From Minisyncoccota bacterium (GTDB lineage: Bacteria > Patescibacteriota > Minisyncoccia > Phycocordibacterales > UBA918), in contig JAWKSQ010000002.1 of the NCBI GenBank assembly GCA_041389045.1, positions 23,898-87,897 of the forward strand: DNA of 64,000 bases, written 5' to 3'. The notes beneath the pieces were generated by a model. It saw only the letters and a list, made by a program, of their open reading frames with translations. It ran no database searches and was not told where the DNA came from. The position numbers and the translations under genes were made by a program. This document shows, in pieces, positions 10,042-61,052 of the stretch. The first letter of the stretch is position 1. Every line of letters starts with the position of its first letter.

Positions 10042-10210
10042 ACAAAACAATTATGTCACCGATTATACCCTAAATGTGCAAAAAAGTAGAAAGGTAACGA
10101 ATGTTTGACTAAGGAATATGAAAAAAATATACACTCACTTTGGGTCTAAAATAAGTAGTCAAAGTGTAATGTGTCCATTTATACGACAACATTGGGTGTA
10201 CAATAAAAAA

Positions 10211-14223: not shown

Positions 14224-15086
14224 ATTTCAATACTTCTTATCGAGTAAAGGGTCTCTTTAGCCTATACCACAAACTAAAGCGCAAAGAATGGGACATTAAT
14301 GCTGTCTACGACCTCTTAGCGATGCGCGTGGTCGTACCAGAAGTAGAGGACTGTTATCGCGCCCTTGGCATCATTCATAAACTATGGCGACCCTTACCCG
14401 GTAGAGTCAAAGATTACATCGCTTTTCCCAAACCAAACGGTTACCAGTCTCTCCATACCACTGTCACTACCCAAAATGGCACAATTTTGGAAATCCAGAT
14501 CCGCACTCGCAAAATGCACCACGAATCGGAATTTGGTATTGCTTCACACATTACTTATAAAGAACCGACAGTTTCTGGTGAAGAAGTAGAAAAAACTTCC
14601 AGATTTGCCAGTCTGATACCGCTCTTATTCAGACCTTTCTCAAAGAGACCAGTCGCTACTGAAGACATGAAAGGTGCAACTAAAACAGCCCATCGTGACA
14701 AAATTCCCCGTTGGATTTCTCAAATTGGGCAAACCCACGCTGGCGACAAATCTTCCACCGCTGACTTTATTGAAGATATGCGCAAGGACTTTTTCTCCAA
14801 TCGTATTTTCGTTTTTACCCCGGCTGGAGACGTGGTGGATTTACCAGTTGGCGCCACACCGATAGACTTTGCCTATGCTATTCACTCTGAAGTCGGTGAC
14901 CACACTTCTGGTGCAAAAGTAAATCGAAAACTAGTCCAACTCGACAGTGAGCTCAAAAATGGAGATATTGTTGAGATCGAAACTCGCAAGTCATCGCACC
15001 CAACCAAGAAATGGTTGGAATCAAGTAAGACTTCCTTAGCCAGACGACGCATCCGCACCGCGCTAGAAAAGGAAATGTTTTCTTAG
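14202..15086 (+). CDS. rel: Rel, synthetase plus TGS fragment
   Basis: Contains YDLLAMRVVV, GYQSLHTTV and EIQIRT, followed by a TGS region (IFVFTPAGDVVDLPVGATPIDFAY). The ORF begins at a TTG that overlaps the end of the upstream fragment. Confidence 0.85.
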   Translation: MAEIGLLDFNTSYRVKGLFSLYHKLKRKEWDINAVYDLLAMRVVVPEVEDCYRALGIIHKLWRPLPGRVKDYIAFPKPNGYQSLHTTVTTQNGTILEIQIRTRKMHHESEFGIASHITYKEPTVSGEEVEKTSRFASLIPLLFRPFSKRPVATEDMKGATKTAHRDKIPRWISQIGQTHAGDKSSTADFIEDMRKDFFSNRIFVFTPAGDVVDLPVGATPIDFAYAIHSEVGDHTSGAKVNRKLVQLDSELKNGDIVEIETRKSSHPTKKWLESSKTSLARRRIRTALEKEMFS

Positions 15087-16479: not shown

Positions 16480-16721
16480 ACAAACAAAATAAATATAATT
16501 ACCCCCGCAAGTACCCAAACTTGCTTGATTTAACTATTCTAACACATTTAGAATCGCCTCCCTGTTTATAACTTTCCAGTTTTCTGCTAGACTGTCACAC
16601 ACCGCCGCGGTGACAGTATAAAAGTAAACTGCTTTACTTTTATACGTTTCGCCAAGGCAACAGTGGACGATACGAACCTAGCGAGTCAGTTCACAAAAAA
16701 TCAAATTTTTGTTTTCAAAGT

Positions 16722-16831
16722 GCCGGAGTGGTGGAATGGTATAACGGTTCGATAGTCTCCCAGACTATCTCACCTCAAAAATCGTGTGCCGCAAGGCTTG
16801 AGGGCTAAAATAGTCTGGGAGACTATTTTAG
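16722..16831 (+). pseudogene. degenerate tRNA-Leu-like copy with paired CCC/GGG-loop hairpins
   Basis: It shares GTTTTCAAAGTGC(C/T)GGAGTGGTGGAATGGTATA and TGCCGCAAGGCTTGAGGG with tRNA-Leu(CAA). It carries ATAGTCT-CCC-AGACTAT (16752-16768) and CTAAAATAGTCT-GGG-AGACTATTTTAG (16805-16831) in place of a proper anticodon stem and T arm. Confidence 0.55.
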
Positions 16832-16932
16832 AAGGTTGCCAGCAAATTTATGACAAAAAGGAATAAATTGGTGACAACCTGAACAGAATTCGTAGAATTC
16901 AAGTCCCTTATAATATAGTTCGTTTTCAAAGT

Positions 16933-17013
16933 GCTGGAGTGGTGGAATGGTATACACGTGCGACTCAAAATCGCATGCCGCAAGGCTTGAGGGTTCAAGT
17001 CCCTCCTCCAGCA
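16933..17013 (+). tRNA. tRNA-Leu(CAA)
   Basis: GCTGGAG...TGCGA CTCAAAA TCGCA, a long variable arm, GAGGG TTCAAGT CCCTC, CTCCAGC A. No CCA is encoded. Confidence 0.9.
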
Positions 17014-18130: not shown

Positions 18131-18262
18131 GAAAGCAAATAGTTTTGCTTTCGTGCTCGAGCGGGAGACGGAGACATGTCGCTTTTCGACAGTCGAGTCG
18201 GGGTCGAGAACACTTAGTAGATTTAGAGCGAAGCGAATAAATATACTTAGTGATTCGTGACC
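18131..18262 (+). repeat. tRNA-linked mosaic structured repeat, unit A
   Basis: Conserved hairpin GAAAGCAAATAGTTTTGCTTTC, then CTCGAGCGGG (18156-18165), which is the reverse complement of the tRNA-Trp end CCCGCTCGAG (18077-18086). The core is GGGGTCGAGAACACTTAGTAGATTTAGAGCGAAGCGAATAAATATACTTAGTGATTCGTGACC. Confidence 0.8.
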
Positions 18263-18425
18263 GCAAAAAAGTGGACACAATGTATCCCGTTCCTGTAAGG
18301 AAAGAATCCTCGTGACCGCAAGAAAGTGGCCACAAGGTGTACTGGTCGTGTAACGACCGAAATTCTTCGTTAGTACTTAGTAGAATTAGAGCGAAGCGAA
18401 GAATTATACTTAGTAATTTGTGACC
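18263..18425 (+). repeat. mosaic repeat, unit B (beta segment plus second core)
   Basis: GTTCCTGTAAGGAAAGAATCCTCGTGACCGC, followed by GTACTTAGTAGAATTAGAGCGAAGCGAAGAATTATACTTAGTAATTTGTGACC. Confidence 0.75.
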
Positions 18426-19767: not shown

Positions 19768-19863
19768 GTTATCCTAATAGTATCACCTCCCTGGTTTGAA
19801 AACTGCAGAGAGTGTGGTAATTTATACCTTACTTACGGCTAGTAAGTGATGAAATGAATAATT

Positions 19864-20020
19864 GCGTCGGTACGGAAGCGGAAAGCGGGGGCAAACTGTA
19901 AGACTTGCACTTTGCGCACCGGGAAGTCTTTCTGACAGCGTTGTTTCCCACCGGAAACACAGTTTAAAGTCGCTACACGCGACAAGTCAGTAAATCTTTT
20001 CGATTCCCAGTCTTCTTTGG
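19864..20020 (+). pseudogene. degenerate tRNA-Tyr-like copy
   Basis: GCGTCGGTACGGAAGCGG...GGCAAACTGTAAGACTTGC parallels the tRNA-Tyr 5' half and its GTA loop. About 90 nt of hairpin-rich insert follows (GTTTCC-CACC-GGAAAC), then a T-loop remnant TTCGATTCCC. No acceptor 3' strand is present. Confidence 0.45.
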
Positions 20021-20057
20021 TTATTCAAAAGTTGTGAAGTGATACAATTAAATAAAT

Positions 20058-20140
20058 GCGTCGGTACTCAAGCGGTCAACGAGGGCAGACTGTAAATCTG
20101 CTGGCATCAGCCTACGAAGGTTCGAATCCCTCCCGGCGCA
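20058..20140 (+). tRNA. tRNA-Tyr(GTA)
   Basis: GCGTCGG...GCAGA CTGTAAA TCTGC, a long variable arm, GGTTCGAATCC, CCGGCGC A. No CCA is encoded. Confidence 0.9.
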
Positions 20141-20172: not shown

Positions 20173-20334
20173 TCTAATGTGCGCCGGAGCAAGCAAATAG
20201 TTTTGCTTGCTTGAGGGATTCAAAAGCGCAGCGATGCCGAAGGCGAGCGAGCTGGGGTCGAGAGTACTTAGTAGAATTAGAGCGTAGCGAATAATTATAC
20301 TTAGTAACTCGTGACCGAATCCTTTCCTCCCGGC
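20173..20334 (+). repeat. tRNA-linked mosaic structured repeat, unit C (archetype)
   Basis: TGCGCCGG (20180-87) and GAGGGATTC (20213-21) are the reverse complement of the tRNA-Tyr 3' strands. They are split by AGCAAGCAAATAGTTTTGCTTGCT. The core ends in CTCGTGACC (20316). GAATCCTTTCCTCCCGGC (20317-34) follows. Confidence 0.85.
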
Positions 20335-21167: not shown

Positions 21168-21557
21168 CTAGAAAGTGGCAAAGATCTTTCTGTTGCCTGA
21201 ATCAATTCGAACCATACCACCATACGGCATTGGGATCTGCGGTTCTGTGTGACCAAAATCCATATTCTGAACAATAGGTATTTCTTTGTTGTAGGCACGA
21301 ACAATTTTTACAATTGTATCTTGCTGTTCCTTTCTGTACGCAACTCGTTCTTCAAGACTTCGCATGTTATCAAATTCACGTGCTTTAGCTCGTCCTACGC
21401 AAATACCCTTTACTCGCGAAAGTACACCTCGTTCCCCTAATGCACGGAAGAATCTCATAACATAATCAGAAGATGGTATCTCTTCTGAAGTTTCCATCAT
21501 AAGTACGATATCTTCAAATTGCTCTAGAGACGGGCTATCAACTCCGTGTCGCAACAT
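21168..21557 (-). CDS. LD-carboxypeptidase (S66/MccF-like), C-terminal fragment
   Basis: Contains MDFGHTEPQIPMPYGG. It continues from 21640-22203 after a 1-nt frameshift near 21643-21650. Confidence 0.75.
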   Translation of the reverse strand: MLRHGVDSPSLEQFEDIVLMMETSEEIPSSDYVMRFFRALGERGVLSRVKGICVGRAKAREFDNMRSLEERVAYRKEQQDTIVKIVRAYNKEIPIVQNMDFGHTEPQIPMPYGGMVRIDSGNRKIFATF

Positions 21558-21639
21558 CTCATCAATTGATTCTAGGCAACCACCCCAAAGAAGTCCCTCT
21601 GCACTTTTACTTCCATCCCACGACCAGCCTTCATTTGGT

Positions 21640-22203
21640 TCATACTCTCTCCTTATTCAGCTGTTCAACATCACCCCAATCTAATCCAATATCATTAAAA
21701 GACTTACTTGACATAAGTTCAAACTCTCCCTCATCAAACAAAGCGTGTCTGATGTACTCTACTGTATATGGATTCATTTCTTTCTGATGTGCAAACTGGG
21801 TGAATAGCGCGGCTCCGTAGAATGACGGTATTCCATTTAAAAACAGAAAGTTACAAAAATGTGAGTTATCACTGTATCCAAAAAATGGTTTTGTATTATC
21901 TACAAACGGTTTACTGAGAAGATTTTTGATATACGTTACTTGTATATCACCGCCAAGAGTTGATATAACTGCTTTAATTTCTGGATCAGAAAATGCAGCA
22001 ATGATATCATTAGCTTTTTCCTCAAGAGTAGCGTCGAGTATAGCTGTAGTTGGATACATTACAGGTTCAAGTTCAAATACTTCACGAAGGCGCTTAAGTC
22101 CCAAATCATGAACGTGTGGCCACACAGCTGACGCGGCAAAACTCGGTGACACAATTGCAACCTTATCCCCTTTCTTTAATTTGGGTATTTTTTTCATTTT
22201 CAT
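21640..22203 (-). CDS. LD-carboxypeptidase (S66/MccF-like), N-terminal fragment
   Basis: Contains KGDKVAIVSPS and the GYSDNSH nucleophile motif. The linking segment YEPNEGWSWDGSKSAEGLLWGGCLESIDEMLRHG is readable in another frame. Confidence 0.75.
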   Translation of the reverse strand: MKMKKIPKLKKGDKVAIVSPSFAASAVWPHVHDLGLKRLREVFELEPVMYPTTAILDATLEEKANDIIAAFSDPEIKAVISTLGGDIQVTYIKNLLSKPFVDNTKPFFGYSDNSHFCNFLFLNGIPSFYGAALFTQFAHQKEMNPYTVEYIRHALFDEGEFELMSSKSFNDIGLDWGDVEQLNKERV

Positions 22204-32210: not shown

Positions 32211-32756
32211 TTATCGAGTCAATGTTTTCATTTTCTGACAGAAGTCAGTCAGCACAACCACGACTTTTTGAAGATCTTTTTTACTGGTTTTTTCACTAAG
32301 AGATAAGCGGATAGTTGCAGTAGCTCGTTGCTTATCCTTGGTCATGACTGCTACTACATGACTCAGTCCCCCTCCCGCTCCGGCACAAGCACTCTTGGTA
32401 CTAGCGGAGATGTCGTGTGAATCCAAAAAGACTACCGCGTATTCAGTGTCAAAGCCAGGCAGAGAAATATTTATATTATTTGCTAGTCGCTCTGTCCCTA
32501 CTGGACCATTAAGGACCGCTCCTGGCACCTGACTTAAAATATTTGCCATGGCTTCATCTCTCACTTTCTGCACCTTCAGAGCTCGCTTCTCGTAGGAAGC
32601 TTGGGCTAAAGATAAAGCCACAGCCGTACCAACTATTCCAGGCACATTCTCGGTCCCTGGTCTAAGTCCCCCTTCCTGTCCACCACCATAAGTAATCGGT
32701 GCAAAATCACTCAGTCTGCGAGAAGCTAATATCCCTATCCTTTTGGACCATGACAC
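32211..32756 (-). CDS. cysteine desulfurase (NifS/IscS-like), C-terminal fragment
   Basis: Contains GGGQEGGLRPGTENV and STKSACAG. It is joined to the middle fragment by a 1-nt indel near 32736-32746 (HGPKG|IGILA). Confidence 0.8.
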   Translation of the reverse strand: MSWSKRIGILASRRLSDFAPITYGGGQEGGLRPGTENVPGIVGTAVALSLAQASYEKRALKVQKVRDEAMANILSQVPGAVLNGPVGTERLANNINISLPGFDTEYAVVFLDSHDISASTKSACAGAGGGLSHVVAVMTKDKQRATATIRLSLSEKTSKKDLQKVVVVLTDFCQKMKTLTR

Positions 32757-33046
32757 TTACCAGCATCTAGCGCCATACTGTCGACACCGAGTTTGGCAAA
32801 AGCACAAGGAAGCCAGAGCGGAGCCTGCGCAGCATCTAGGTGAACTGAAATAGTTACTGAGTTTTTCTGGGCAAAATTTCTAATTACCCTCGTGAGTCGC
32901 GAGACGGGTTGCACTGTACCAACTTCACTATTGGCATAAGCCAATACCACCAGCACAGTTCGTGATGACAAGACTTTTTCCAAAGCTGGTATCGTAATAA
33001 GACCCACCTCATCCACCGCGACAAACTTTATTTTTACACCGAGCAT
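32735..33046 (-). CDS. cysteine desulfurase, middle fragment
   Basis: Contains LAYANSEVGTVQP and DAAQA...ALDAGKCHGPKG, which is the PLP-lysine region. Confidence 0.8.
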   Translation of the reverse strand: MLGVKIKFVAVDEVGLITIPALEKVLSSRTVLVVLAYANSEVGTVQPVSRLTRVIRNFAQKNSVTISVHLDAAQAPLWLPCAFAKLGVDSMALDAGKCHGPKG

Positions 33047-33414
33047 TTTAGCTTTGGCAAAAGTGACAAAATAGAAGGATGTTCAATTTCCGTTGTCACA
33101 ATCTCCATCTCTGTATACTTTTTCCCTGACGCTTTTAATTTTTCTATATAACCAAGTATGGCCAAATTGTTACTTTCAGTTCCACTACCGGTAAAAATCA
33201 CTCCGCTACTTTTAATCCCTAGTACAGTCGCCACTTCTTGCCTTGCCTCTTCCACCGCCAGGCGAGCTACCTGACCTTCTTTATGTATCGCACTTGGATT
33301 ACCAAAATTACTGGTGAAGTAAGGTTTCATCTTTGACAAAACCTTCGGATCAACTGGTGTAGCGGCAGCATTATCGAGGTAAATTCGCTTTTTTGGCTCG
33401 AGTTTTTTAGACAT
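33034..33414 (-). CDS. cysteine desulfurase, N-terminal fragment
   Basis: Contains IYLDNAAATPVDPKV, FGNPSAIH and TGSGTESNN. A frameshift lies at the T4/A4 run 33046-33049. Confidence 0.8.
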   Translation of the reverse strand: MSKKLEPKKRIYLDNAAATPVDPKVLSKMKPYFTSNFGNPSAIHKEGQVARLAVEEARQEVATVLGIKSSGVIFTGSGTESNNLAILGYIEKLKASGKKYTEMEIVTTEIEHPSILSLLPKLKCSV

Positions 33415-33519
33415 GACAAAAATCATGACATAGCGTGTCAAATATGTAAATCTCTGCTATACTCGCAGTACTTTTAATTATCAGCGCGCCTGAGTAGGCG
33501 TTTTTACGTATTACTACTT

Positions 33520-35526: not shown

Positions 35527-35699
35527 GTGAGTCCTGGAGCAATGCGCCTGCGCGCATTGCGGGTGGGAGTCGAACAGCGGAGTCATGTTGGGGCTTTTCA
35601 TTAAGCCTCAACAGACGAGCTGCGTCCAGCGTACTTATGAGCGTAAGCGAATTAGTAAAAGCGGGACGACTCCAAGTGACCGACTCCCATTAGGGACAG
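35527..35699 (+). repeat. tRNA-linked mosaic structured repeat, unit D (divergent core)
   Basis: GTGAGTCCTG (35527-36) is the reverse complement of the tRNA-Cys end CAGGACTCAC. The hairpin GCAATGCGC-CTG-CGCGCATTGC follows, then GGGAGTCGAAC. The core is GCGGAGTCATGTT[GGGGCTT..AAGCCTC]...GTACTTATGAGCGTAAGCGAATTAGTAAAAGCGGGACGACTCCAAGTGACC. Confidence 0.7.
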
Positions 35700-35721: not shown

Positions 35722-35804
35722 GCCCAGATGGTGTAATTGGTAGCCACGCAAGACTTAAAATTTTGTGTCACAAGGCCGTGCGGGTTCAATTCCCGCTCTG
35801 GGCA
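35722..35804 (+). tRNA. tRNA-Leu(TAA)
   Basis: GCCCAGA...CAAGA CTTAAAA TTTTG, a long variable arm, GCGGG TTCAATT CCCGC, TCTGGGC A. Confidence 0.9.
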
Positions 35805-35847
35805 CCTATAGAAGTAAACAACCACCGGACTTAGGTCCGGTGGCTTT

Positions 35848-36450
35848 GGTTCATCCTAGTCGGATGAACCATCTGCCGGCTTAAGCCGGCTGATCTGTAG
35901 TTGCTAGGAGATTAGTTTGTTAAATAGTGATGGTTGATCAACTTGATTATGATGATCTTGATGCTTCACGTACCGACGGATAATCATTTCATCTAGACCG
36001 ATCGTAGAGACGAAATAACCTCTGGCCCAGAGTGATTCTTTTTCATAGAGACCATGAGCACGTTTTATTTTCTTCTTCATCCAAGCTGAGCTTTTACCTT
36101 TAATTATTTGCATCAGGTACGAGACTGAATCCCTCGGAGAAGCACTCAGTATTAAGTGGATATGATCATCTTGGATGTTTAGTTCGATTATTTCCCAGTG
36201 TCTGTATTTAGTGATTGATTCAAAAGTACGTCTCAATTCATCTTTAACCTTTTGTGGTCCTAGTACCTTGCCTCGGTATTTTGGAGTCCAGACGAGATGG
36301 TATTTCATCTCGTAGTAACAATGTGCTAGTGTTTTAATGGTAGGTTTGCGCATACGTATTTAGTTATTACTAAAGCCAGTTGGGCGTCACCGGCTTTAGT
36401 ATATCTGTTGCCTTCAACGTACTCTCTGGCTGAAGCCGGAGGTTTTTAGA
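35848..36450 (-). mobile_element. IS200-type insertion sequence (approximate ends)
   Basis: A single Y1 transposase gene is flanked by subterminal hairpins of related sequence: GCCGGCTTAAGCCGGC (35875-35890) and GGCTGAAGCCGG (36431-36442). Further hairpins are GGTTCATCC..GGATGAACC and TACTAAAGCC..GGCTTTAGTA. The exact ends were not determined. Confidence 0.6.
35904..36353 (-). CDS. tnpA: IS200/IS605 family Y1 (HUH) transposase TnpA
   Basis: Contains YHLVWTPKYRGKVL, HUH (DHIHLIL) and the catalytic-Tyr region WARGYFVSTIG. Confidence 0.95.
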   Translation of the reverse strand: MRKPTIKTLAHCYYEMKYHLVWTPKYRGKVLGPQKVKDELRRTFESITKYRHWEIIELNIQDDHIHLILSASPRDSVSYLMQIIKGKSSAWMKKKIKRAHGLYEKESLWARGYFVSTIGLDEMIIRRYVKHQDHHNQVDQPSLFNKLIS

Positions 36451-36489
36451 TAATAAAACAACCAGCTAAAAGCTGGTTGTTTTATTTCA

Positions 36490-36619
36490 GGTGCCCAGAG
36501 CGGGAATTGAAAGGCGGAGCGATGTGAGCTTGCGAACCAGCGAGCCGGGGTCGAGAACACTTAGTTGATTTGGAGTCGAAGACGAACAAATCTACTTAGT
36601 GATTCGTGACCAATTCCCG
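36490..36619 (+). repeat. tRNA-linked mosaic structured repeat, unit E
   Basis: GGTGCCCAGAGCGGGAATTGAA (36490-36511) is the perfect 22-nt reverse complement of the tRNA-Leu(TAA) end (35785-35806). The core is GCGGAGCGATGTGAGCTTGCGAACCAGCGAGCCGGGGTCGAGAACACTTAGTTGATTTGGAGTCGAAGACGAACAAATCTACTTAGTGATTCGTGACC, followed by AATTCCCG. Confidence 0.85.
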
Positions 36620-36630
36620 TGTATTGCTAG

Positions 36631-36724
36631 CGGGAATTGAAGAGGTTAGTCAGATACCTTAGGAACACTTGGACTAAAGTATCGACAACCTGTACTGAAC
36701 TCGTAGAGTTCAATTCCCTACCAC
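36631..36724 (+). repeat. degenerate second unit E2
   Basis: CGGGAATTGAA ... GAACACTTGGACTAAAGTATCGACAACCTGTACTGAACTCGTAGAG ... TTCAATTCCCTACCAC. The E+E2 block is bracketed by the 19-nt exact direct repeat AGCTGGTTGTTTTATTTCA (36471-36489 and 36730-36748). Confidence 0.6.
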
Positions 36725-36878
36725 TGCATAGCTGGTTGTTTTATTTCATATACATAGAATGAGGGGATAAAACTCTATTGGGCTTTTTTATAAAGAACCC
36801 ATAAATCCTTGACACACCCCTAACATTCCCATAGTCTAAGTTTTGGCCTAGTTTTTTGTAACCAACTGGAGACATGTC

Positions 36879-37395: not shown

Positions 37396-37468
37396 GCGCC
37401 TTTAGCTCAGTTGGTAGAGCAGCTCCCTCTTGGAGACGGTCCAAGGTTCGAGCCTTGAAGGCGCACCA
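37396..37468 (+). tRNA. tRNA-like gene (Lys-CTT-like) with encoded CCA and non-canonical anticodon and T loops
   Basis: GCGCCTT TA GCTC AGTTGGTA GAGC A GCTCC CTCTT GGAGA CGGTC CAAGG TTCGAG CCTTG AAGGCGC A CCA. It has a 5-nt anticodon loop and a 6-nt T loop. Function is doubtful, or indel errors are present. Confidence 0.4.
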
Positions 37469-37960
37469 AGGTGAATACAAAAACACTGGTTTTTTAAACC
37501 AGTGTTTTTGTATTCAGGAAGCAAACTGCTTTGCTTTCGTACCTTGGTGCGAGTCGGAGACATATTTCTTTTCTTGCCTAGAAAAGAAATAGTCGAGACC
37601 GGGGTGAGAAAGTGTCTAAACACTTTCGCAAGACCTTTTGAGAAATTTATTTCCAAAAGGTGTATCGCTTCTGTAAGAAGAAAGTTCTTATGAGCGTAGC
37701 GAATTAGAAACTTGACCCCGCAAAAAACTGCCACCCGGCAGTTTTTTAATATGTGCGCCTTCAAGGTGTAGCTTTTCGTTAAGAAAAGCGTTACACGGCT
37801 CGAAAAGCTTTTGCGATAGATTCGACTGAAAGGAGAATATATCCAAAAGGTGTACAGTTCCTGTAAGGAAAGAGCCATTGTTTTTATGTATTGTGTAGAA
37901 ATAATTATATTAAGTAACTCGTGACCACAAAGCGTTACACGGCTCGACATAAAGAAACCC
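37469..37960 (+). repeat. composite mosaic repeat region F
   Basis: A 17-bp perfect hairpin is followed by GAAGCAAACTGCTTTGCTTTC. CCTTGGTGCG (37542-51) and GTGCGCCTTCAAGG (37753-66) are both reverse complements of the tRNA-like 3' end. The short core variant is GGGGTGAGAAAGTGTCTAAACACTTTCGCAAGACC. Beta segments AAAAGGTGTA...CTGTAAG(G/A)AA(A/G)A occur twice. The terminal sequence is TAAGTAACTCGTGACC. Confidence 0.7.
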
Positions 37961-41649: not shown

Positions 41650-42096
41650 TTAAGGTGTGCCTGGATTAGGACCTCCTACAGGTGGAGTACCACCGGGATT
41701 AGGACCTCCTACAGGTGGAGTGCCACCGGGATTAGGACCTCCTACAGGTGGAGTGCCACCGGGATTAGGTAATCTGAATACTTCGTTACAGCCGGACGCC
41801 GATGGATTTTGAGCGCAGTCTAGCTCTTGATTAAGACCAAAAGTTCCCGCTGCGATACTTAAAATAGCAAAAGCTGAGGCCATTACGACCAAACCAATAA
41901 TACCAAAGGTGATATGTTTCTTCCCTTCTGCGCGAGCAGATTCATTATCAGCATTCATGATGTAGAGCGCACAACCATAAATAAAAACTAAAAAAGCAAT
42001 ACCCGAGAGCAGTGAGATGGTAGGAAAAAGAATCGCCGTGTTTAGTCTATCAACTAGTTTTCCAGCCTCAATCGTAGCGGATTCTTGTGGTGACAT
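41650..42096 (-). CDS. TrbC/VirB2-like pilin-like membrane protein with C-terminal PGGTPPVGGPN repeats
   Basis: Two TM helices flank NADNESARAEGKK. The tail has three 30-bp tandem repeats (41668-41765) encoding NPGGTPPVGG. Confidence 0.65.
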   Translation of the reverse strand: MSPQESATIEAGKLVDRLNTAILFPTISLLSGIAFLVFIYGCALYIMNADNESARAEGKKHITFGIIGLVVMASAFAILSIAAGTFGLNQELDCAQNPSASGCNEVFRLPNPGGTPPVGGPNPGGTPPVGGPNPGGTPPVGGPNPGTP

Positions 42097-45276: not shown

Positions 45277-47739
45277 CTAGACGAACACTACACTAGCGAT
45301 AGCATCCCCTTCACGCATTTTCATGACCCGTACCCCTTGAGTCTGACGTCCAAGAGTTGGCACATCTTTAAGTGGAAGTTTAATCACCTGTCCTTTCTTA
45401 CTCATGATGACTAACTCCCTTCAGTACGCTCATCCTCCTTGAGGACAATACCGCAAACAATCGTACCAGTCTTACTAGTCACCTTAGCTGTCTTAATACC
45501 TGAACCGCCACGCTTTTGGACTTTATATTCTTTGGTTGGAGTGGTTTTACCGTAACCGTGCTGTGTCACTATCAAGATTTCATTATTCTTATCACCTTTA
45601 GTAATAACGTCAGCCGAAACCACCACATCATTCTTACCTAGACGTACCGCCGCTACTCCGCCGGCTGTACGACCCATTTGTCTAACATCGCTTTCTTTAA
45701 AGCGAATCGCTTGACCATTTAGCGTCACCAGTGACACCTCATCGCCTTTGCCAACAAAACGAGCCGAAATGAGTGAATCCTCTGGCTTAAGCGTGATAGC
45801 AATAAGCCCACTGCGCCTAACATCCTTAAAGGCTTCAGCGTCACATTTCTTAGCTACACCATTTTTGGTAATCATCATCAGGCTCCAGTCGCCGGCGTTA
45901 GCGTCTTTTCGTACTGCCAACACTGAAGTAATACTTTCCTCACTAGTGAGTGACAAAAAGTTCATGATTGATTTACCTTTGGTGGCACGACGGCCCTCAG
46001 GGATTTCAAACATCTTGCTCTGGTAGACCTTGCCCCGATTAGTGAAGAAGAGTAAGTCACTATGAGTAGATGTCGTTAGTAGAGTGGTGACTACGTCTTC
46101 TTCTTTGGTATTGAGGTCAATAACGCCAACCCCACCGCGTTTTTGTGTACGGTATTCACTTGGATTAGTTCGTTTGACGTATCCACCTTGAGTCAACACT
46201 AAAACACTCTCTTCATCTGGTACCAGGTCTTCCTGTGAAAGTTGCTTTACGCCACCCTTGACTATCTTGGTGCGACGATCGTCACCATACTTCTCAGCTA
46301 CTTCTAGCAGGTCGTCCTTAACGATCTTCATCATCTTCGCTTTACTCTTGAGAATGGCTTCTAGTTCACCAATGAGTTTCTTTAGTTCAGCCAGTTCGTC
46401 CTCAATCTTCTTGCGCTCTAGTCCAGCCAACTTCTGCAGACGCATATCCAAAATCGCCTGCGCTTGTAAAGCTGAGAATTTAAATTCTTTCATCAAAGAT
46501 GCGTGTGCGGTCGGCACGTCTTTCGCGGCCCGAATAAGCTTGATTATCTTATCGATATGATCGAGCGCCTTCTTGAGACCAAGCAAAATATGCTCACGGT
46601 CTTTAGCTTTACCGAGATCATACTCCGTGCGACGACGGATCACTTCCGCTCGGTGCTTAACGTATTCTTGCAGGATTACCTTAAGCGAAAGAGTTTGTGG
46701 TACACCATCTACCAAAGCCACCATGTTGTAGTGGAAAGTATCTTCAAGTGGTGTGTGCTTGTACAATTTATTTAAAACTGTCTGTGGTTGTGCACCAGCC
46801 TTCAGCTCGATAACAATCCGAATATCAGAAGTCGACTCGTCGCGCATGTCGCGGATACCCTCAATCTTCTTGTCACGAACTAAGTCAGCGATTTTTACTT
46901 GTAGCTCAGCCTTATTAACCCGATATGGAATCGAAGTAATAATAATGGCAAAGGCCCCTTTCTTATCTTCAACAATCTCGGCTTCCCCGCGCACTACTAC
47001 ACCACCTTTACCATTAGCATAGGCATGAGCAATGTCTTTTTGATTGAAAGCAATGGCACCAGTTGGAAAATCTGGACCCTTAACGAATTTTAGTAGATCA
47101 TCGGTTGAAGCATCAGGATTATCGACCAAGTGAGCTGTCGTTCAATTTCACCGCAAGTTGTGTGGAGGAATATTGGTGGCCATTCCTACCGCAATACCAA
47201 GTGAACCCATCATTAGTAAGTTGGGTACTGCTGAAGGAAGAACTACTGGTTCTTTTTGGTACCATCGAAGTTTGGTCGCCAGTCGACGTGTCTTTCTCTA
47301 AATCACGAAGCATTTCTTCGGCCAACTTCCGACATTTTTGCTTCAGTGTATCGATAAGCGCTGAGTCACCGTCAATCGAACAAAGTTTCCTTGCCCAAGT
47401 ACCAGCGGATAACGAGTTGAGAAGTCTTGCGCCAACTTAACCATCGCTTCGTAGACCGAAAGTCACCGTGCGGGTGCAAGCTACCAAGCACGTCTCCCAC
47501 TACCGTCGCTGACTTTTTTGAACTTAGCAGTTGAAGTTGATCATTTAACCTCATCGAATAGAAATACGACGATGTACTGGCTTCAAACCATCACGCACGT
47601 CAGGTAGCGCGCGAGCAGTAATAACCGACATAGCGTAATTTAGATACGCTGTCTCCATTTCATTGGTTATATCCTGAGCCACAACCCCACGATGTGGTGG
47701 CATTTCTGGTGTATCAGCAACAATTGTCTTTTTCGGCAT
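45277..47739 (-). pseudogene. gyrA: DNA gyrase subunit A, full span, interrupted by about 9 or more single-nt indels
   Basis: GyrA sequence is readable across frames: MPKKT...[99 protein letters not shown], then the intact 572-aa ORF. The last blade (VIMSKKGQVIKLPLKDVPTLGRQTQGVRVMKM) follows a GGG-run frameshift at 45417-19. Confidence 0.85.
45411..47129 (-). CDS. gyrA: DNA gyrase subunit A, largest intact ORF (C-terminal two-thirds)
   Basis: 572-aa ORF covering the tower/coiled-coil region and beta-pinwheel blades. Confidence 0.9.
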   Translation of the reverse strand: MVDNPDASTDDLLKFVKGPDFPTGAIAFNQKDIAHAYANGKGGVVVRGEAEIVEDKKGAFAIIITSIPYRVNKAELQVKIADLVRDKKIEGIRDMRDESTSDIRIVIELKAGAQPQTVLNKLYKHTPLEDTFHYNMVALVDGVPQTLSLKVILQEYVKHRAEVIRRRTEYDLGKAKDREHILLGLKKALDHIDKIIKLIRAAKDVPTAHASLMKEFKFSALQAQAILDMRLQKLAGLERKKIEDELAELKKLIGELEAILKSKAKMMKIVKDDLLEVAEKYGDDRRTKIVKGGVKQLSQEDLVPDEESVLVLTQGGYVKRTNPSEYRTQKRGGVGVIDLNTKEEDVVTTLLTTSTHSDLLFFTNRGKVYQSKMFEIPEGRRATKGKSIMNFLSLTSEESITSVLAVRKDANAGDWSLMMITKNGVAKKCDAEAFKDVRRSGLIAITLKPEDSLISARFVGKGDEVSLVTLNGQAIRFKESDVRQMGRTAGGVAAVRLGKNDVVVSADVITKGDKNNEILIVTQHGYGKTTPTKEYKVQKRGGSGIKTAKVTSKTGTIVCGIVLKEDERTEGS

Positions 47740-56086: not shown

Positions 56087-56524
56087 ATGGAACAAATAAA
56101 ATCAGACGTTGAATCCTTTGCACGTATTCGTGTAGTTGGTGTTGGTGGTTCTGGAAAGAACGCCGTTAACCACATGGTATCCCGTAAAGTTAAGGGAGTG
56201 GAGTTTATTGCTATCAATAGTGACTCACAAGACCTACATCACTCATTTGCTAAAAAGAAAATTCACATTGGTAAGAATCTAACTCGTGGTCTTGGTGCCG
56301 GTGGTAATCCTGACATGGGTCGTCGTGCTGCTGAAGAGACGCGTGAAGAAATTGCTAACGCGATCAAGGGCTCTGACAGATCTTCATCACTGGTGGTATG
56401 GGTGGTGGCACTGGTACCGGATCAGCTCCGGTTGTCGCCAAGATTGCTCGAGGAAAGTGGAGCACTGACTGCTGGTGTCGTGACTAAGCCTTTCCTATTT
56501 GAAGGACAGAACGTATGCGACTAG
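56087..56524 (+). CDS. ftsZ: FtsZ, N-terminal fragment (contains an internal compensated frameshift pair)
   Basis: [10 protein letters not shown] is present. The tubulin signature [23 protein letters not shown] is readable only in the alternative frame between about 56375 and 56452. Confidence 0.85.
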
Positions 56525-57330
56525 CTCTCCAAGGTATCGAAGAGCTAAAAAAAGAAGTGGACGCCCTCATCACCATCCCTAACGACCGACTCCTAGCTAT
56601 CGTGGATCGCGAAACTACTGTTCGCAACGCCTTTGAACAATGTGACAATGTCCTCAAGCAAGCGGTTGAGGGTATTTCCGACCTCATCACTATGCCTGGT
56701 ATTATCAACGTCGACTTCGCTGACATTCGTAGCGTGATGGAAAATGCCGGCTCTGCTCTCATGGGTGTCGGTATTTCGTCTGGCGAAAAGCGGGCTGAAG
56801 AAGCTGCTCAAGCGGCTATCAATTCCCCACTCCTTGAAGTATCCATCACTGGAGCCAAGGGTGTCCTCTTCGCTATCGCTGGCGGAGACGACCTAGCGAT
56901 GCTCGAAATCCAAGACGCTGCCCGAGTTATTACTGAGTCTATCGATCCTCACGCTAAGGTGATCTTCGGAGCCATCAAGGACGACAAACTTAAGAAAAAT
57001 GAAATCAAGGTAACTGTCATCGCTACTGGCTTCCCAGAGGAACACGCTAATCCGCAAAACTCTATCTCGAGAAGAGCTCCTGCAGCTATCACTCGTCCAG
57101 AACCAGAAGATGAGGTAGTGGCGCCAGAGTCTAAGGGTAGAATCTTCAATTCCCTTTCCATGCCAAAGAAGACTGAACAGGAACCAACTCCAGAACCAGT
57201 TGTAAACAACTCTGTACGCCATAACGACATGCCTAAGCGTGATCCAAAGCCAGTTGATCCGATTGATGAAGATGATGATGGAGACTGGGGTGCGGTTCCA
57301 GCATTTTTGCGTAGGTCAAAGCTTAAATAA
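56515..57330 (+). CDS. ftsZ: FtsZ, C-terminal fragment
   Basis: [28 protein letters not shown]... with a C-terminal DWGAVPAFLRR peptide. It joins the upstream fragment at the A-run near 56508. Confidence 0.9.
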   Translation: MRLALQGIEELKKEVDALITIPNDRLLAIVDRETTVRNAFEQCDNVLKQAVEGISDLITMPGIINVDFADIRSVMENAGSALMGVGISSGEKRAEEAAQAAINSPLLEVSITGAKGVLFAIAGGDDLAMLEIQDAARVITESIDPHAKVIFGAIKDDKLKKNEIKVTVIATGFPEEHANPQNSISRRAPAAITRPEPEDEVVAPESKGRIFNSLSMPKKTEQEPTPEPVVNNSVRHNDMPKRDPKPVDPIDEDDDGDWGAVPAFLRRSKLK

Positions 57331-57340
57331 GCTTTGACTA

Positions 57341-57492
57341 GCAAAAATGCGAACCGCAAAGCGGAGCGATGTGAGTCGCCTCTTCCCAGGACGACGAACC
57401 AGCGAGCTGGGGTCGAGAACACTTAGTAGATTTCGCACGTAGTGCAGAAATATACTTAGTGATTCGTGACCGGTTCCTACTTTTGCGTTTGC
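57341..57492 (+). repeat. mosaic structured repeat, unit H1 (no tRNA nearby)
   Basis: The outer arms GCAAAAATGCGAACCG and CGGTTCCTACTTTTGCGTTTGC are complementary. The core is GCGGAGCGATGTGA[GTCG..CGAC]GAACCAGCGAGCTGGGGTCGAGAACACTTAGTAGATTTCGCACGTAGTGCAGAAATATACTTAGTGATTCGTGACC. Confidence 0.85.
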
Positions 57493-57518
57493 ATAATTAA
57501 AATAATTTAGCTTCCAAA

Positions 57519-57651
57519 AAAGCGGTGCCGACGGGCGTAGCGATGTGAACCGCCCCATCTTAGGGCGGTGAACCAGCGAGCCGAGTCGACAAGTACTTAG
57601 TTTTTTATGAACGTAGAGATATAAAAAGCTTAGTAACTTGTGACCGGTTCC
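57519..57651 (+). repeat. mosaic structured repeat, unit H2
   Basis: GCGTAGCGATGTGA[ACCGCCC-CATCTTA-GGGCGGT]GAACCAGCGAGCCGAGTCGACAAGTACTTAGTTTTTTATGAACGTAGAGATATAAAAAGCTTAGTAACTTGTGACCGGTTCC. Confidence 0.8.
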
Positions 57652-57682
57652 AGCCTGCTAAATAAATCTATTTAAATTCCAG

Positions 57683-57726
57683 CCAAAACAAACCCCAACA
57701 CCTCAGTGTTGGGGTTTGTTTTGTGG
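57683..57726 (+). terminator. terminator after the ftsZ-repeat block
   Basis: CCAAAACAAACCCCAACAC-CTC-AGTGTTGGGGTTTGTTTTGTGG. Confidence 0.75.
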
Positions 57727-57785
57727 GAATTACCGCCATAAGGTACAATAACAGCTCTAAGAAAATAATATTGAATTTGTAAGAT

Positions 57786-58709
57786 ATGTTTGAACTCGCA
57801 ATTATAGGTGGCGGACCAGCTGGAGTAGCAGCCGGGGTATATGCATCACGAAAGAAATTGGAAACTTTATTTATTACTAAGGAATGGGGTGGCCAGAGTA
57901 CAGTTTCAACTGAAATCCAAAACTGGATTGGTACCCCAGCTATCAGCGGAACCAAACTAGCAGACGATCTAAAACTTCATCTTACTACTTATGCTAGTGA
58001 CGTAGTTACTATTAAAGAAAATGTTACGGTAACAAAGATTGAAAAAGTTGGCGATATTTTTTCTATCACTTTAAGTTCTGGTGAGACCCACAAAGCCAAA
58101 GCCATCCTAATTGCTAGTGGCTCAAAGCGCCGACAACTACCAGCCATTAATGCTGATATTTTTGAACATAAAGGCCTCACCTACTGTGCCAGTTGTGACG
58201 GACCCATTTTTAGTGGACAATCGGTAGCAGTCATTGGTGGAGGTAACGCCGCTCTCGAAACTGCCGCCCAGCTACTAGCCTACGCCAAAGACGTCACCAT
58301 CATACAACGCAGTGGCTCATACAAAGCTGACCCAGTCACAGTCGACAAAGTCTTTTCTCACCCCAACATGAAAGGAATCCTTAACGCCGAGGTTAAAGAA
58401 ATTAAAGGTGACAAGTTTGTGTCTGGCTTAGTGTACTTAGACAAAACTACTGGCGAAGAAAAGACTCTTGATGTCACTGGTATTTTCGTCGAAATCGGTA
58501 TGCTTCCAAACACCGATTACTTGGCAAGTGTGGTACCACTTGATGAATATGGACGAGTAGTCATCAACCCTTGGACTCAGAAGACAGAAACCCCTGGTAT
58601 CTGGGCAGCTGGCGACTGTACCAATGTTCTCTATCATCAAAACAACATCGCGGCTGGTGATGCCGTTAGAGCACTAGAAGATATCTACGTTACCTTGCGA
58701 GCCAGATAG
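57786..58709 (+). CDS. trxB: thioredoxin-disulfide reductase
   Basis: Contains IIGGGPAGVAAGVYA, the redox motif CASCDG and GGGNAALE. Confidence 0.9.
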   Translation: MFELAIIGGGPAGVAAGVYASRKKLETLFITKEWGGQSTVSTEIQNWIGTPAISGTKLADDLKLHLTTYASDVVTIKENVTVTKIEKVGDIFSITLSSGETHKAKAILIASGSKRRQLPAINADIFEHKGLTYCASCDGPIFSGQSVAVIGGGNAALETAAQLLAYAKDVTIIQRSGSYKADPVTVDKVFSHPNMKGILNAEVKEIKGDKFVSGLVYLDKTTGEEKTLDVTGIFVEIGMLPNTDYLASVVPLDEYGRVVINPWTQKTETPGIWAAGDCTNVLYHQNNIAAGDAVRALEDIYVTLRAR

Positions 58710-58761: not shown

Positions 58762-59316
58762 GTACAACGTAGAGTTTGGTCTGCACGCTTTGCTCATAGC
58801 CTGAGCGTTGTATGGAGATACTTCACCACCGTGCAAACCTATAACTAGCATCTCATACTCATAACTAGTGTCAACGAAAGTCTAAAATCCTTATTTTTCA
58901 ACCTTCTGTGTATAAACCTGTGTAAAAGTACTGGAAAAGTATGTATAAAACCCTGGTCATAACTTATGTAAAAGTCTGTCGATAGTCACTTGACGTCCTT
59001 TAGTAGAAAAGTCACCAAATTTAGCTTAGTTGCATAACTTTAGCCATAAAAACTTACTACACAATTATAGTATAACAAGCACTTAGTAGACCTAGAATTT
59101 CCTGACATTTCTGGTACTATGTGGCGGACTAAATAGCAGATTTAAAAATTGCTACTTTAGTAAAAAGTAAGTACAGGAAAGGAGTGGTTTTTGGCATGAG
59201 GATGGCACGGAGCCGAGAATATCTCCCAGACCAAGTTGGAGGCAGACGAGTATAAGTTGGAAGTGGTTTTTGGCAAGAGTATTGCACTCAACCAAAAATG
59301 TCTCCCAGACATTTTT

Positions 59317-59388
59317 GGCCCTATCGTATAACGGCTAGTACACTTGGTTCTCATCCAAGAAATCGGAGTTCGATTCTCCGTAGGCACG
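59317..59388 (+). tRNA. tRNA-Glu(CTC) with a defective acceptor 3' strand
   Basis: GGCCCTA TC GTAT AACGGCTA GTAC A CTTGG TTCTCAT CCAAG AAAT CGGAG TTCGATT CTCCG TAGGCAC. The last 7 nt give 2 mismatches with GGCCCTA. The displaced copies read TAGGGTCAC, which would pair fully. Confidence 0.6.
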
Positions 59389-59426
59389 CGTACAAAAACG
59401 AGCATCTCGAAAGAGGTGCCGTTTTT
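59385..59426 (+). repeat. 42-bp direct repeat, left copy (tRNA-Glu end plus terminator)
   Basis: CACGCGTACAAAAACGAGCATCTCGAAAGAGGTGCCGTTTTT is identical to 61011-61052. Confidence 0.9.
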
Positions 59427-59572: not shown

Positions 59573-59601
59573 TTGACATTTATTATTATTTATGTTATCA
59601 T
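59573..59601 (+). promoter_or_regulatory. sigma70-like promoter
   Basis: TTGACA-N17-TATCAT. Confidence 0.65.
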
Positions 59602-59648
59602 ATTGCCTGGTAGCAAATTTCACAACCCAACAAACGAAAGGGGGGCTA

Positions 59649-59954
59649 ATGGCCACACATAAATACATCTACTGGCGTCCCGATATGCAACCCAACGAGA
59701 AAGGTGAGACGTATGCCAACGTCCATCTCCTCGTTGGATACAACCAGGCATCCATCACCGATTTTCGGAAGATGGCTGACGAACTTCGCGAGACGTTCCC
59801 ACAGGCGACCGATGACGACATCTGCGGAGGAAAGGTTTTCAAATCCTCCTACGTCAATGGACACACCATCATCACCTGGGGCGCGCACATCCCGAAGGGC
59901 GAATACCCTGGCTGGCACCAGAAGGACGACGGTCGCATGGAGTATTGTTGTTAA
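59649..59954 (+). CDS. hypothetical protein (101 aa), G+C-rich orphan
   Basis: A G-rich RBS (AAAGGGGGG) precedes ATG 59649, and a terminator follows directly. No motif recognised. Confidence 0.6.
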   Translation: MATHKYIYWRPDMQPNEKGETYANVHLLVGYNQASITDFRKMADELRETFPQATDDDICGGKVFKSSYVNGHTIITWGAHIPKGEYPGWHQKDDGRMEYCC

Positions 59955-60237: not shown

Positions 60238-60837
60238 TTAAGCGATCAGGAACTTAGGAGGATTCCAGTCTCGTTCTTCCGTTTCCGGTCGCATGGTTCC
60301 ACATGCCGAGTACCTGATCCCACGAAACGTCGGGACCGGATACGCCGAGATGTAGTAGTACTGGCGAAACCACAGTTCAATGTCAGCCAGATGCCACATT
60401 CCCGAGAGACCGCGTGCAACGACCTTCGCAATGATGAGTTGCGGGGCGTTATCAAGCGAGTCTCCTGCAAGCATGAGCATGCCTCGAAAGAACACGGTCT
60501 TGACTTCGAAGTCGTCACGATTCCTCGCCAAGTATGCAAGGGATCCGAGGTTATAAACCTCATCACGTTGTTTTTTGGAGAGTGAGTCCCAGTGACGTCT
60601 TGCAATGTCTTCCAGAAGATCGGCCTGAAGCATGTGGCCGTCAGCATCGAACTCAAGACCCGGCCGATGCTTCTTGTTCGGGACGATGATCTCACGATGA
60701 CGGAGAACAGCCTGTTCACCGAAACGCAACTTCAAAGCCTCACGGAAAACCTCCTCCGCATAGGTGAGGCCAGCACTGAGTTGCAGTGCATCCAAAAACT
60801 GACACCCCTCAACAGGGCGAGATTGCAAACCTGACAT
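60238..60837 (-). CDS. hypothetical protein (199 aa), G+C-rich orphan
   Basis: This is the longest ORF here; the overlapping ORFs are treated as shadows. A terminator hairpin AAAACCCGC..GCGGGTTTT lies at 60188-60216. No motif recognised. Confidence 0.6.
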   Translation of the reverse strand: MSGLQSRPVEGCQFLDALQLSAGLTYAEEVFREALKLRFGEQAVLRHREIIVPNKKHRPGLEFDADGHMLQADLLEDIARRHWDSLSKKQRDEVYNLGSLAYLARNRDDFEVKTVFFRGMLMLAGDSLDNAPQLIIAKVVARGLSGMWHLADIELWFRQYYYISAYPVPTFRGIRYSACGTMRPETEERDWNPPKFLIA

Positions 60838-61010: not shown

Positions 61011-61052
61011 CACGCGTACAAAAACGAGCATCTCGAAAGAGGTGCCGTTTTT
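61011..61052 (+). repeat. 42-bp direct repeat, right copy
   Basis: Identical to 59385-59426. It is preceded by TTAGGGT, a remnant of the tRNA-Glu acceptor 3' strand. Confidence 0.9.

Follow-up and report, generated by a model that had tools for sequence, protein, structure and literature searches.

The window analysed here comprises 64,000 nucleotides (nt) of contig JAWKSQ010000002.1 from a Minisyncoccota bacterium, a member of the Patescibacteria. In its spacer between ftsZ, whose open reading frame (ORF) contains an FtsZ_C domain and ends at position 57330, and trxB (57786-58709, assigned by domain matches), lie two tandem + strand copies of a three-way-junction core of ~115 nt, designated H1 (57341-57496) and H2 (57514-57661). 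An initial annotation of this DNA had described them as a conserved structured module occurring here without a tRNA, with shared sequence blocks, two internal hairpins that differ between the copies, and complementary outer arms in H1. All of these features were recovered. The block GCG(G/T)AGCGATGTGA is present at 57361-57374 and 57535-57548 (4 matches in the pattern scan vs 0.35 expected), GAACCAGCGAGC at 57396-57407 and 57570-57581, and (C/T)GTGACCGGTTCC at 57465-57477 and 57639-57651; every other block named as shared is likewise in place. The two hairpins keep their pairing with different sequences, and the H1 arms can form a 16-bp helix with 2 mismatches. Both copies fold far better than their shuffled counterparts (z = -4.9 for H1 and -6.3 for H2), folding them jointly reveals a shared structure with compensatory changes, and the covariance model (CM) of the family scores 107 bits at H1 and 83 bits at H2 on the + strand, as compared to 23 and 13 bits on the - strand. 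No tRNA was found near the pair with Rfam and ARAGORN, the closest one being at 59317.

The components of this locus, together with the further copies in the window, are listed in Table 1. Starting from the end of ftsZ, their order is S1 (the real ftsZ end), AS1, core 1, S2, AS2, core 2, S3 and terminator, where S marks copies of the gene end in forward and AS copies in inverted orientation. At the centre of the inverted duplication is a hairpin whose tip contains the ftsZ stop codon (57328-57330), and four of the related loci described below (L006, L160, L162 and L179) show this arrangement too. AS1 is the reverse complement of ftsZ GCGGTTCCAGCATTTTTGC, the codons for AVPAFL, minus 2 nt. S2 is a decayed forward copy of the same 39-nt ftsZ end, down to a pseudo-stop codon, and the H2 3′ arm (CGGTTCCAGCCTGCTAA) is a still more decayed one. 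Units 1 and 2 align end to end through ftsZ-end copy, pseudo-stop, antisense arm and core; the H2 core forms the same three-way junction as H1, in which the variable hairpin P3 spans 57372-57399, but it has its own P3 (57546-57573) and its own P5. The alignments identify the outer arms of both H1 and H2 as copies, inverted or forward, of the C-terminal codons of ftsZ. The picture of an autonomous core with a free, yet maintained, outer stem has to be abandoned accordingly, since the arms derive from the target gene end instead. The initial annotation was right that no tRNA lies near these arms, which it called unrelated to any tRNA of the window, but it had overlooked that both the 5′ and the 3′ arms originate from the end of ftsZ.

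Table 1. Parts of the ftsZ-trxB spacer and further copies of the element in the window.
Feature	Position	Strand	Description and evidence
S1, resident ftsZ end, forward copy 1	57292..57330	+	last 13 codons AVPAFLRRSKLK plus TAA; ORF, FtsZ_C domain
Stop-codon hairpin	57315..57338	+	GTCAAAGCTT-AAAT-AAGCTTTGAC; sequence and minimum free energy (MFE) fold
AS1, H1 5′ arm	57341..57357	+	GCAAAAATGCGAACCGC; inverted copy of ftsZ 57292-57312, 2 nt missing
H1 core	57358..57470	+	ends in GTGAC; CM hit 57347-57482, 107 bits; covariation
S2, H1 3′ arm	57471..57505	+	CGGTTCCTACTTTTGCGTTTGCATAATTAAAATAA, reads PVPTFAFA-stop; alignment of unit 1 with unit 2
AS2, H2 5′ arm	57514..57532	+	CAAAAAAGCGGTGCCGAC; decayed inverted ftsZ-end copy, colinear with AS1; duplex energies
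H2 core	57533..57644	+	ends in GTGAC; CM hit 57521-57656, 83 bits
S3, H2 3′ arm	57645..57667	+	CGGTTCCAGCCTGCTAAATAAAT, reads VPAC-stop; oldest of the forward ftsZ-end copies, with the most advanced decay
Intrinsic-terminator-like hairpin with T run	57685..57723	+	first such hairpin 3′ of ftsZ, before trxB
Copy downstream of tRNA-Trp	18154..18273	+	CM 118 bits
Partial second copy after the tRNA-Trp unit	18367-18423	+	CM 47 bits
Copy downstream of tRNA-Tyr	20212..20328	+	CM 108 bits
Divergent core variant downstream of tRNA-Cys	35563..35678	+	same layout; CM 37 bits
Copy of tRNA-Leu(taa) (35722-35806)	36500..36622	+	CM 114 bits
Divergent core variant downstream of the tRNA at 37396-37468	37540..37665	+	CM 23 bits, E = 0.0014

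The 5′ arm of H1 has two possible partners. Its duplex with the ftsZ coding end amounts to -27.2 kcal/mol, as compared to -15.3 kcal/mol with the H1 3′ arm, and in the MFE fold of the whole region AS1 pairs with the ftsZ codons and not with the 3′ arm. Therefore, the "outer stem" is at least partly a by-product of the duplication of the target end. In the family at large, the upstream gene end is the stronger partner of the 5′ arm, ahead of the 3′ arm, in 63 of 82 copies, as would be expected if the 3′ arm is the displaced, unselected old end; both the upstream and the downstream pairings exceed shuffled controls. With arms copied from the ftsZ codons, the tRNA-less H1/H2 pair shows most clearly how the family as a whole is put together. 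Neither folding nor the scan of 56900-57900 showed a terminator between the ftsZ stop codon and H1/H2. The pair is thus located between the stop codon and the first terminator, in agreement with the ftsZ 3′ untranslated region (3′ UTR) to which it had been assigned at the outset, and its co-transcription with ftsZ is plausible. The ftsZ gene itself (56087-57330) carries at least 2-3 frameshifts within ~200 nt, its conserved motifs changing frame around 56380-56530. Other genes of the window also look split or truncated (13543-15086, 21168-22203, 32211-33441 and 45411-47129), namely HD/RelA-SpoT, LD-carboxypeptidase, class-V aminotransferase and gyrA, the last of which begins at profile position 167; these broken genes reflect either assembly indel errors or widespread pseudogenisation.

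The consensus fold of the core was obtained from a MAFFT alignment of 28 copies that had not been fitted to any structure. P1 corresponds to the outer arms, and the junction strands are AAA and GGG. P2 (3 bp, NNC:GNN) stacks on the variable hairpin P3, with a G bulge and a G.A/A.G step in between. The next helix, P4 (GGUCG:UGACC, containing a conserved G.U), runs into P4b (ACUUAGU:ACUUAGU around a U.U mismatch), while P5 combines a tandem G.A step with a C-GNA-G loop, which is C-GUA-G in H1. In this unfitted alignment, 90% of the cells are standard pairs, compared with 31-38% if the partners are slid by 1-3 columns, and both sides have changed in 24 of the 38 pairs. For the larger set, a curated seed alignment and a CM were used in place of a global MAFFT alignment, which had too many gaps for RNAalifold. 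Among 150 CM-aligned copies, 91% of the cells are paired (31-40% in the slid controls), with compensatory changes in 36 of the 38 pairs. One G.U pair stays G.U in 139 of 149 sequences; outside it, G.T/T.G combinations outnumber A.C/C.A (162 vs 98), an asymmetry that is moderate and biased by the CM fitting. The structure is accordingly real, and it belongs to the sense strand of the neighbouring target gene, where it may form in RNA or in single-stranded DNA.

Rfam 15 has no family for this core. The search of the whole window at gathering thresholds gave 9 tRNAs only, and at E<=10 the region 57200-57800 returned nothing but chance matches far below the thresholds. Likewise, no tRNA or tmRNA was called by ARAGORN or RF00005 within 57341-57661 or in the other copies. 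Comparison by eye with hammerhead, hairpin, twister, pistol and hatchet ribozymes and with group II domain 5 gave no convincing match, and Rfam reported none; a K-turn at the P2/P3 G.A loop was discarded, the bulge being of 1 nt and not 3.

The window copies were located with an nhmmer profile and then with the CM. All of them are on the + strand, the same loci reaching 12-27 bits on the - strand. At tRNA-Tyr, the arms of the copy are antisense and sense copies of the T arm and of the acceptor 3′ strand of the tRNA, and at tRNA-Leu(taa) the tRNA is separated from the antisense arm of its unit by an IS200-like Y1 transposase gene (35904-36353, - strand). The tRNA at 37396-37468, which precedes one of the divergent variants, is reported by ARAGORN as "tRNA-???", with an abnormal anticodon loop and the anticodon "ct", and by Rfam as a normal tRNA (53 bits).

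Beyond the window, we scanned a collection of species-representative genomes using a pattern for the 3′ half of the core. More than 118 loci were identified; among the matches listed, essentially all are in metagenome-assembled genomes of Patescibacteria (Kaiser-, Yonath-, Nomura- and Campbellbacteria, Paceibacterota and others), and the single match labelled Patiriisocius is probably a binning error. A pattern scan of viral contigs and blastn searches of phages and plasmids gave no copies. A tRNA is present on the same strand <300 nt upstream in 96 of 161 copies; the nearest tRNA upstream is on the same strand in 107 copies and on the opposite strand in none, and the tRNA-linked copies serve at least 37 different anticodons. 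Copies devoid of a tRNA follow either tmRNA (L094, L077, L093 and L049) or ftsZ. Nearest-neighbour clustering of 150 copies shows no clear pattern with regard to tRNA type or genome (8 and 7 of 110).

Throughout the family the layout consists of the gene end, a hairpin or terminator, an antisense copy, the core ending in GTGAC and a second copy of the gene end. At tRNA genes, the tRNA is followed by a hairpin, usually a terminator, and by the antisense of the acceptor 3′ strand, to which a small conserved hairpin with a CUGC-type loop is often added; then come the antisense of the T-arm 3′ strand, the core and a forward tRNA copy, often exact, that begins at C56 of the T loop and ends with the discriminator base. 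In 85 of 135 copies (8 in the reversed-sequence control), at least 9 nt of the 5′-arm complement recur exactly within the 400 nt upstream; the 3′ arm has such an upstream match in 60 of 135 (control 12). A terminator-like hairpin with a T run precedes the core in 65 of the 82 tRNA-linked copies and follows it in 22. The location of so many cores behind terminators fits a DNA-level or selfish element that supplies the repaired tRNA with a terminator of its own more easily than a co-transcribed RNA.

The history of the ftsZ site can be followed in related genomes. Nine loci from the genome scan have ftsZ and trxB around the element, their FtsZ being 67-86% identical to that of the window, and a more distant genome (FtsZ 54%) is without it. 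The FtsZ tail WGAVPAFLRRSKLK, up to its stop, is invariant across the relatives; its codons vary by genome, and in each genome the antisense arm matches the local ftsZ codons. We also analysed 80 further ftsZ loci from metagenomes (FtsZ 70-88%), 72 of which had enough flanking sequence. Here, the core type of H1 and H2 is absent from 27 loci and occurs once in 35, twice in 7, three times in 1 and four times in 2. Some of the loci scored zero hold other core types in an identical layout, whereas others are truly empty, with a terminator followed by the next gene; such further core types occupy the ftsZ slot in L119, L160, L162, L179 and L197. An empty locus (L151) and a filled one (L156) share 97% FtsZ identity. 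Pairing is conserved in the related genomes, contrary to random decayed duplicates, the case that the initial annotation had named as its refutation.

Ten loci keep, 105-273 nt past the real stop codon, an intact second VPAFLRRSKLK with its stop, i.e., the last twelve codons including the stop. In 7 of these 10, the displaced end differs from the resident end by 8-12 nt and 6-10 changed codons, all synonymous. Differences restricted to synonymous positions are unlike decay in place and indicate that the displaced ends were functional ftsZ ends until recently; they belong to a codon lineage other than that of the present resident end. For L006 and L179, comparison by eye shows homology of the displaced end and the arm behind it to the "resident end plus arm" of other genomes, so that a new unit with its own ftsZ end appears to have been added there upstream of an older one. 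At L182 the site is otherwise empty, but GTCTTGACGAGCAAGAAAT is kept after the stop codon and resembles the stop hairpin and the beginning of the antisense arm; this remnant may be the scar of a lost unit.

We propose that H1 and H2 are successive units of an insertion module, mobile or selfish and without a protein of its own, by which the 3′ end of the target gene is replaced; we put the chances of this reading at about even. In this reading, the unit is specific to Patescibacteria (Paceibacteria), ~180 nt long and composed of three pieces. The first repeats, in forward orientation, the final ~20-40 nt of a highly conserved gene: in this case ftsZ AVPAFLRRSKLK with its stop codon, at other loci the stretch of a tRNA or tmRNA between the T loop and the discriminator base, both included. 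The second comprises a hairpin or terminator and then an inverted copy of the same gene end, and the third is the three-way-junction core ending in GTGAC, after which the next forward copy of the gene end follows. Such a unit would enter by recombination inside the target 3′ end and supply a working replacement, while the old end would be pushed downstream and decay. Repeated entries would generate tandem arrays such as S1-AS1-core1-S2-AS2-core2-S3; conversely, recombination between forward copies would remove a unit and leave an empty site. The core, folded from one strand in the sense of the target, may act as a transcript (the 3′ UTR in the case of ftsZ) or as single-stranded DNA. It would be the part kept by selection and may promote the propagation or retention of the unit. 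The data above establish the architecture, the fold, the distribution, the copies of target ends, the replacement history and the filled and empty sites; we infer that mobility underlies them, how recombination proceeds and what the core does. The window also contains a dprA gene (10118-11071), for DNA processing in natural transformation, which bears on a possible spread by uptake and recombination of related DNA.

Concerning enzymes, a Pfam survey of 60 window ORFs revealed no integrase, reverse transcriptase, TnpB, IscB or IS110-type gene; no integrase domain is present in the window ORFs of at least 110 amino acids, and the units (150-250 nt) are devoid of ORFs. Several observations speak against the proposed module. 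No recombinase, reverse transcriptase or nuclease is found in the unit or linked to it, and the only IS200-like Y1 transposase of the window has a weak homologue near 1 other of the 118 loci listed (tblastn). Neither an excised or circular form nor a phage or plasmid copy was found. Copies within a genome are as diverged as copies from different genomes (60-87% identity), which gives no sign of recent bursts. In addition, the copies at ftsZ loci share locus-specific P3 features across genomes; this resembles prolonged vertical inheritance with purifying selection, which would also be the pattern of a host function. Simple integration leaves unexplained both the origin of the inverted copy and its tracking of synonymous codons. 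The tracking of codons and tRNA trailers by the arms could result from selection for RNA pairing, and the filled/empty and replacement patterns could arise by ordinary homologous recombination between relatives, with no need for a dedicated mobility.

The main rival, which we regard as unlikely but worth serious consideration, is a cis-acting RNA switch. The unit would be transcribed with its gene (as ftsZ 3′ UTR, or by read-through from a tRNA), its antisense arm would pair either with the gene end or with the downstream copy (P1), and the core would be the sensor or protein-binding domain that makes the choice. Pairing with the gene end would produce a long hairpin over the stop codon, or over the acceptor and T strands of the tRNA, and the switch would thereby control 3′-end processing, stability or translation termination of ftsZ and tRNAs. 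Strong covariation, a conserved G.U and tandem G.A motifs are typical of functional RNAs, and the strand specificity of the fold points in the same direction, as do the two mutually exclusive pairings, each above shuffled controls, the co-variation of the antisense arms with local synonymous ftsZ codons and tRNA trailers, and the locus-specific conservation over FtsZ identities of 67-86%. At ftsZ, where no terminator separates the stop codon from H1/H2 and a strong one follows H2, this explanation is quite plausible. Regulatory RNAs of 3′ UTRs and trailers and riboswitch-like elements share with the module the mutually exclusive pairings, the conserved domain and, at ftsZ, the position in the 3′ UTR. 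On the other hand, most tRNA-linked cores are situated behind a terminator-like hairpin with a T run, few have a terminator after them (see the counts above), and no promoter was noticed by eye in the short tRNA trailers, the promoter scan having covered 56900-57900 only. Furthermore, the length of the forward copy greatly exceeds what pairing calls for, and its coding information is preserved: the displaced ftsZ ends keep the 12-codon peptide and its stop with synonymous changes only, which pairing does not require. Close relatives entirely without the unit and several unrelated core types in the same slot also count against a switch. Distinctly unlikely, in our estimate, is a new class of protein-less "homing" module, whose folded strand (RNA or single-stranded DNA) would use the inverted gene-end copy as a guide and would insert, or be copied, beside the gene while repairing its end, either with no enzyme of its own or with a partner provided by the host or in trans. 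Guide pairing of the kind found in group I introns is present, as the antisense segment can pair with both flanks, just upstream (as P1) and just downstream (as P10) of the core. However, the core of ~115 nt has only P2-P5 and no catalytic core (P3-P9, G-binding site), RF00028 gives no match even at E<=10, the module stands after a complete gene end so that no splicing is needed, and the "exon" copy downstream has decayed. Among the tRNA genes of Patescibacteria such introns are common and occupy position 35/36 (PMC13011429). As for the RNA-guided systems, namely TnpB/IscB with omega-RNA and IS110 with bridge RNA, the window contains no effector gene, and the neighbours at the ftsZ locus are ftsZ and trxB.

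The exact end of the forward copy at the tRNA discriminator base (+C), the interruption of the 5′ strand by a conserved hairpin near the acceptor/T-stem boundary, which is tRNA-like, and the presence of tmRNA among the targets would all suit stand-alone small RNA genes, the arms of which would mimic the acceptor/T-arm "top half" of the neighbouring tRNA and allow RNase P together with RNase Z/CCA-adding enzyme to excise a stable RNA whose end is tRNA-like. We think this quite improbable: the ftsZ-type copies (H1, H2 and their orthologues) have an equally conserved core without tRNA-like arms, many copies possess a P1 of 4-6 bp only, made from tRNA end and trailer, ARAGORN and Rfam detect no tRNA-like element, and the trailers show no promoter by eye, with the same limit to the scanned region. 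Still less credible is a non-autonomous IS200/IS605 (Y1/HUH) or REP/BIME-like element whose single-stranded hairpins would be moved in trans, for instance by the Y1 transposase at 35904-36353. This Y1_Tnp gene does lie inside one window unit, all window copies are on one strand, and REP/BIME and IS200/IS605 derivatives are, like the module, multi-copy, strand-specific, hairpin-rich repeats 3′ of genes; moreover, the strand-specific structure is rich in C-GNA-G loops, and these are unusually stable in DNA. Yet the module is much larger, forms a three-way junction, has target-derived arms that differ per locus and, with a Y1 homologue near one other locus, is not associated with Y1 or RAYT genes across loci. 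Its long direct target copies are not made by IS200/IS605, its junction contexts differ (GGTT/C, GGTG/C and GGGT/C, the slash marking the junction), no paired left-end and right-end hairpins or common short target tetranucleotide are recognizable, and its orientation follows the target gene (107 same-strand upstream tRNAs, 0 opposite). Finally, a chance or decaying tandem duplication of the ftsZ 3′ region lacking conserved structure is hardly tenable: decay of the copied ftsZ end is evident in S2 and S3, but such an origin is refuted by the compensatory conservation of the core in more than 150 copies from many genomes and by folds that beat the shuffles.

Returning to the insertion module, its closest counterparts are the islands integrated at tRNA and tmRNA genes by tyrosine integrases (attP/attB). 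In both cases the 3′ ends of tRNA, tmRNA or conserved protein genes are the targets, the element gives a replacement 3′ end, the old end stays downstream as a direct repeat whose identity stops at the gene end (found here at tRNA, tmRNA and ftsZ), tandem arrays form at one site, and filled and empty sites coexist among relatives. Unlike the islands, the module has ~150-250 nt, encodes no integrase or other ORF, and contains an inverted target copy and a conserved folded core; in addition, its crossover point varies (T loop, tRNA end plus trailer, ftsZ codons) and there is no single att site. The integron attC sites and the attP(+) site of CTX-phi, used by XerCD, resemble the module in being strand-specific folds whose conservation lies in the structure and not in the sequence. 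The stem of CTX-phi is formed by two inverted sites ~90 nt apart, a stem that imitates the chromosomal target, and hairpin integration of this kind predicts the order target copy, rest of the element, inverted copy, loop (core) and target copy. By analogy, integration of a folded single strand would yield the order observed here. The G.T/T.G asymmetry reported above, the C-GNA-G loops and the matching layout are indirect hints at such a folded single-stranded DNA substrate. In contrast to attC and CTX-phi, the module has no conserved R/L boxes or dif-like Xer sites, its stem changes with each target, and no single-stranded or circular form is seen for it. A literature search found no description of it, although relevant papers could still exist; TIGR-Tas and the tRNA group I introns (PMC13011429) surfaced in this search, and neither describes the module. 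Set apart by the comparisons with Rfam families, tRNA-like genes, introns, IS/REP elements and omega or bridge RNAs, the family is one we rate as categorically new, with a mechanism that we infer.

Further observations concern the surroundings of the window copies. The Y1 insertion (35810-36488) has hairpins at both ends and AAACAACCA at both borders, and it splits the terminator of tRNA-Leu(taa). A 19-nt direct repeat, AGCTGGTTGTTTTATTTCA, which is the 3′ half of a terminator, occurs at 36470-36488 and 36730-36748 and brackets the unit at 36500-36622 together with the next module; this suggests that the block 36470-36748 was duplicated or inserted together with the terminator half. At least one other type of module shares the arm-core-arm layout and is often in tandem with the core studied here (36631-36722, 18268-18345, 16830-16905, 37640-37700 and 37838-37875); it contains GACAACCTGTACTGAAC-TCGTAGA-GTTC and hairpins with CTGTAAG loops. 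Repeats resembling 5′ halves of tRNAs are found at 16708-16752 and 16919-16963, at 19852-19901 and 20046-20095, and at 2737-2776 and 2948-2987, and the region just upstream of tRNA-Glu is repeated as well (59170-59231 and 59249-59310). These repeats, which resemble the Leu-caa, Tyr and Gln tRNAs or the tRNA-Glu upstream region, lie 80-210 nt before the real gene; behind some of them come long insertions and then a T-arm-like end. Disrupted genes or pseudo-tRNAs are one possible explanation. At 59385-59426 and 61011-61052, the tRNA-Glu(ctc) 3′ end and its terminator form a perfect 42-nt direct repeat around ~1.6 kb in which two ORFs (59592-59954 and 60238-60837) have no Pfam match, and the segment 59385-61052 has the appearance of an ordinary small element integrated at a tRNA gene. 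Lastly, 3 1/3 tandem 33-nt units (95% identical) at 41660-41769, within an ORF with a pilin domain of the type IV secretion system (T4SS; 41650-42096, - strand), encode a Pro/Gly-rich repeat; the window holds five T4SS_pilin ORFs.

Patescibacteria have tiny genomes, yet more than 1 kb of this window is spent on at least 8 units, and the family stands behind tmRNA, ftsZ and most kinds of tRNA in many lineages. It accounts for numerous "orphan" fragments of tRNA ends and for long intergenic stretches of these genomes, and it offers a defined covariance model, filled and empty alleles and a two-state structure that can be tested. If the units are RNA switches, one sensor would couple cell division, through ftsZ, to tRNA supply in organisms with very few protein regulators. 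If they are mobile, they would represent a new route by which gene-less DNA settles in the most conserved positions of a genome and yet does not damage the host gene. The mirroring of the target by the arm suggests a targeting principle that could be reprogrammed; should this arm direct insertion, the family would be a natural guide-directed insertion system of ~180 nt, programmable for the ends of tRNA, tmRNA and ftsZ genes.

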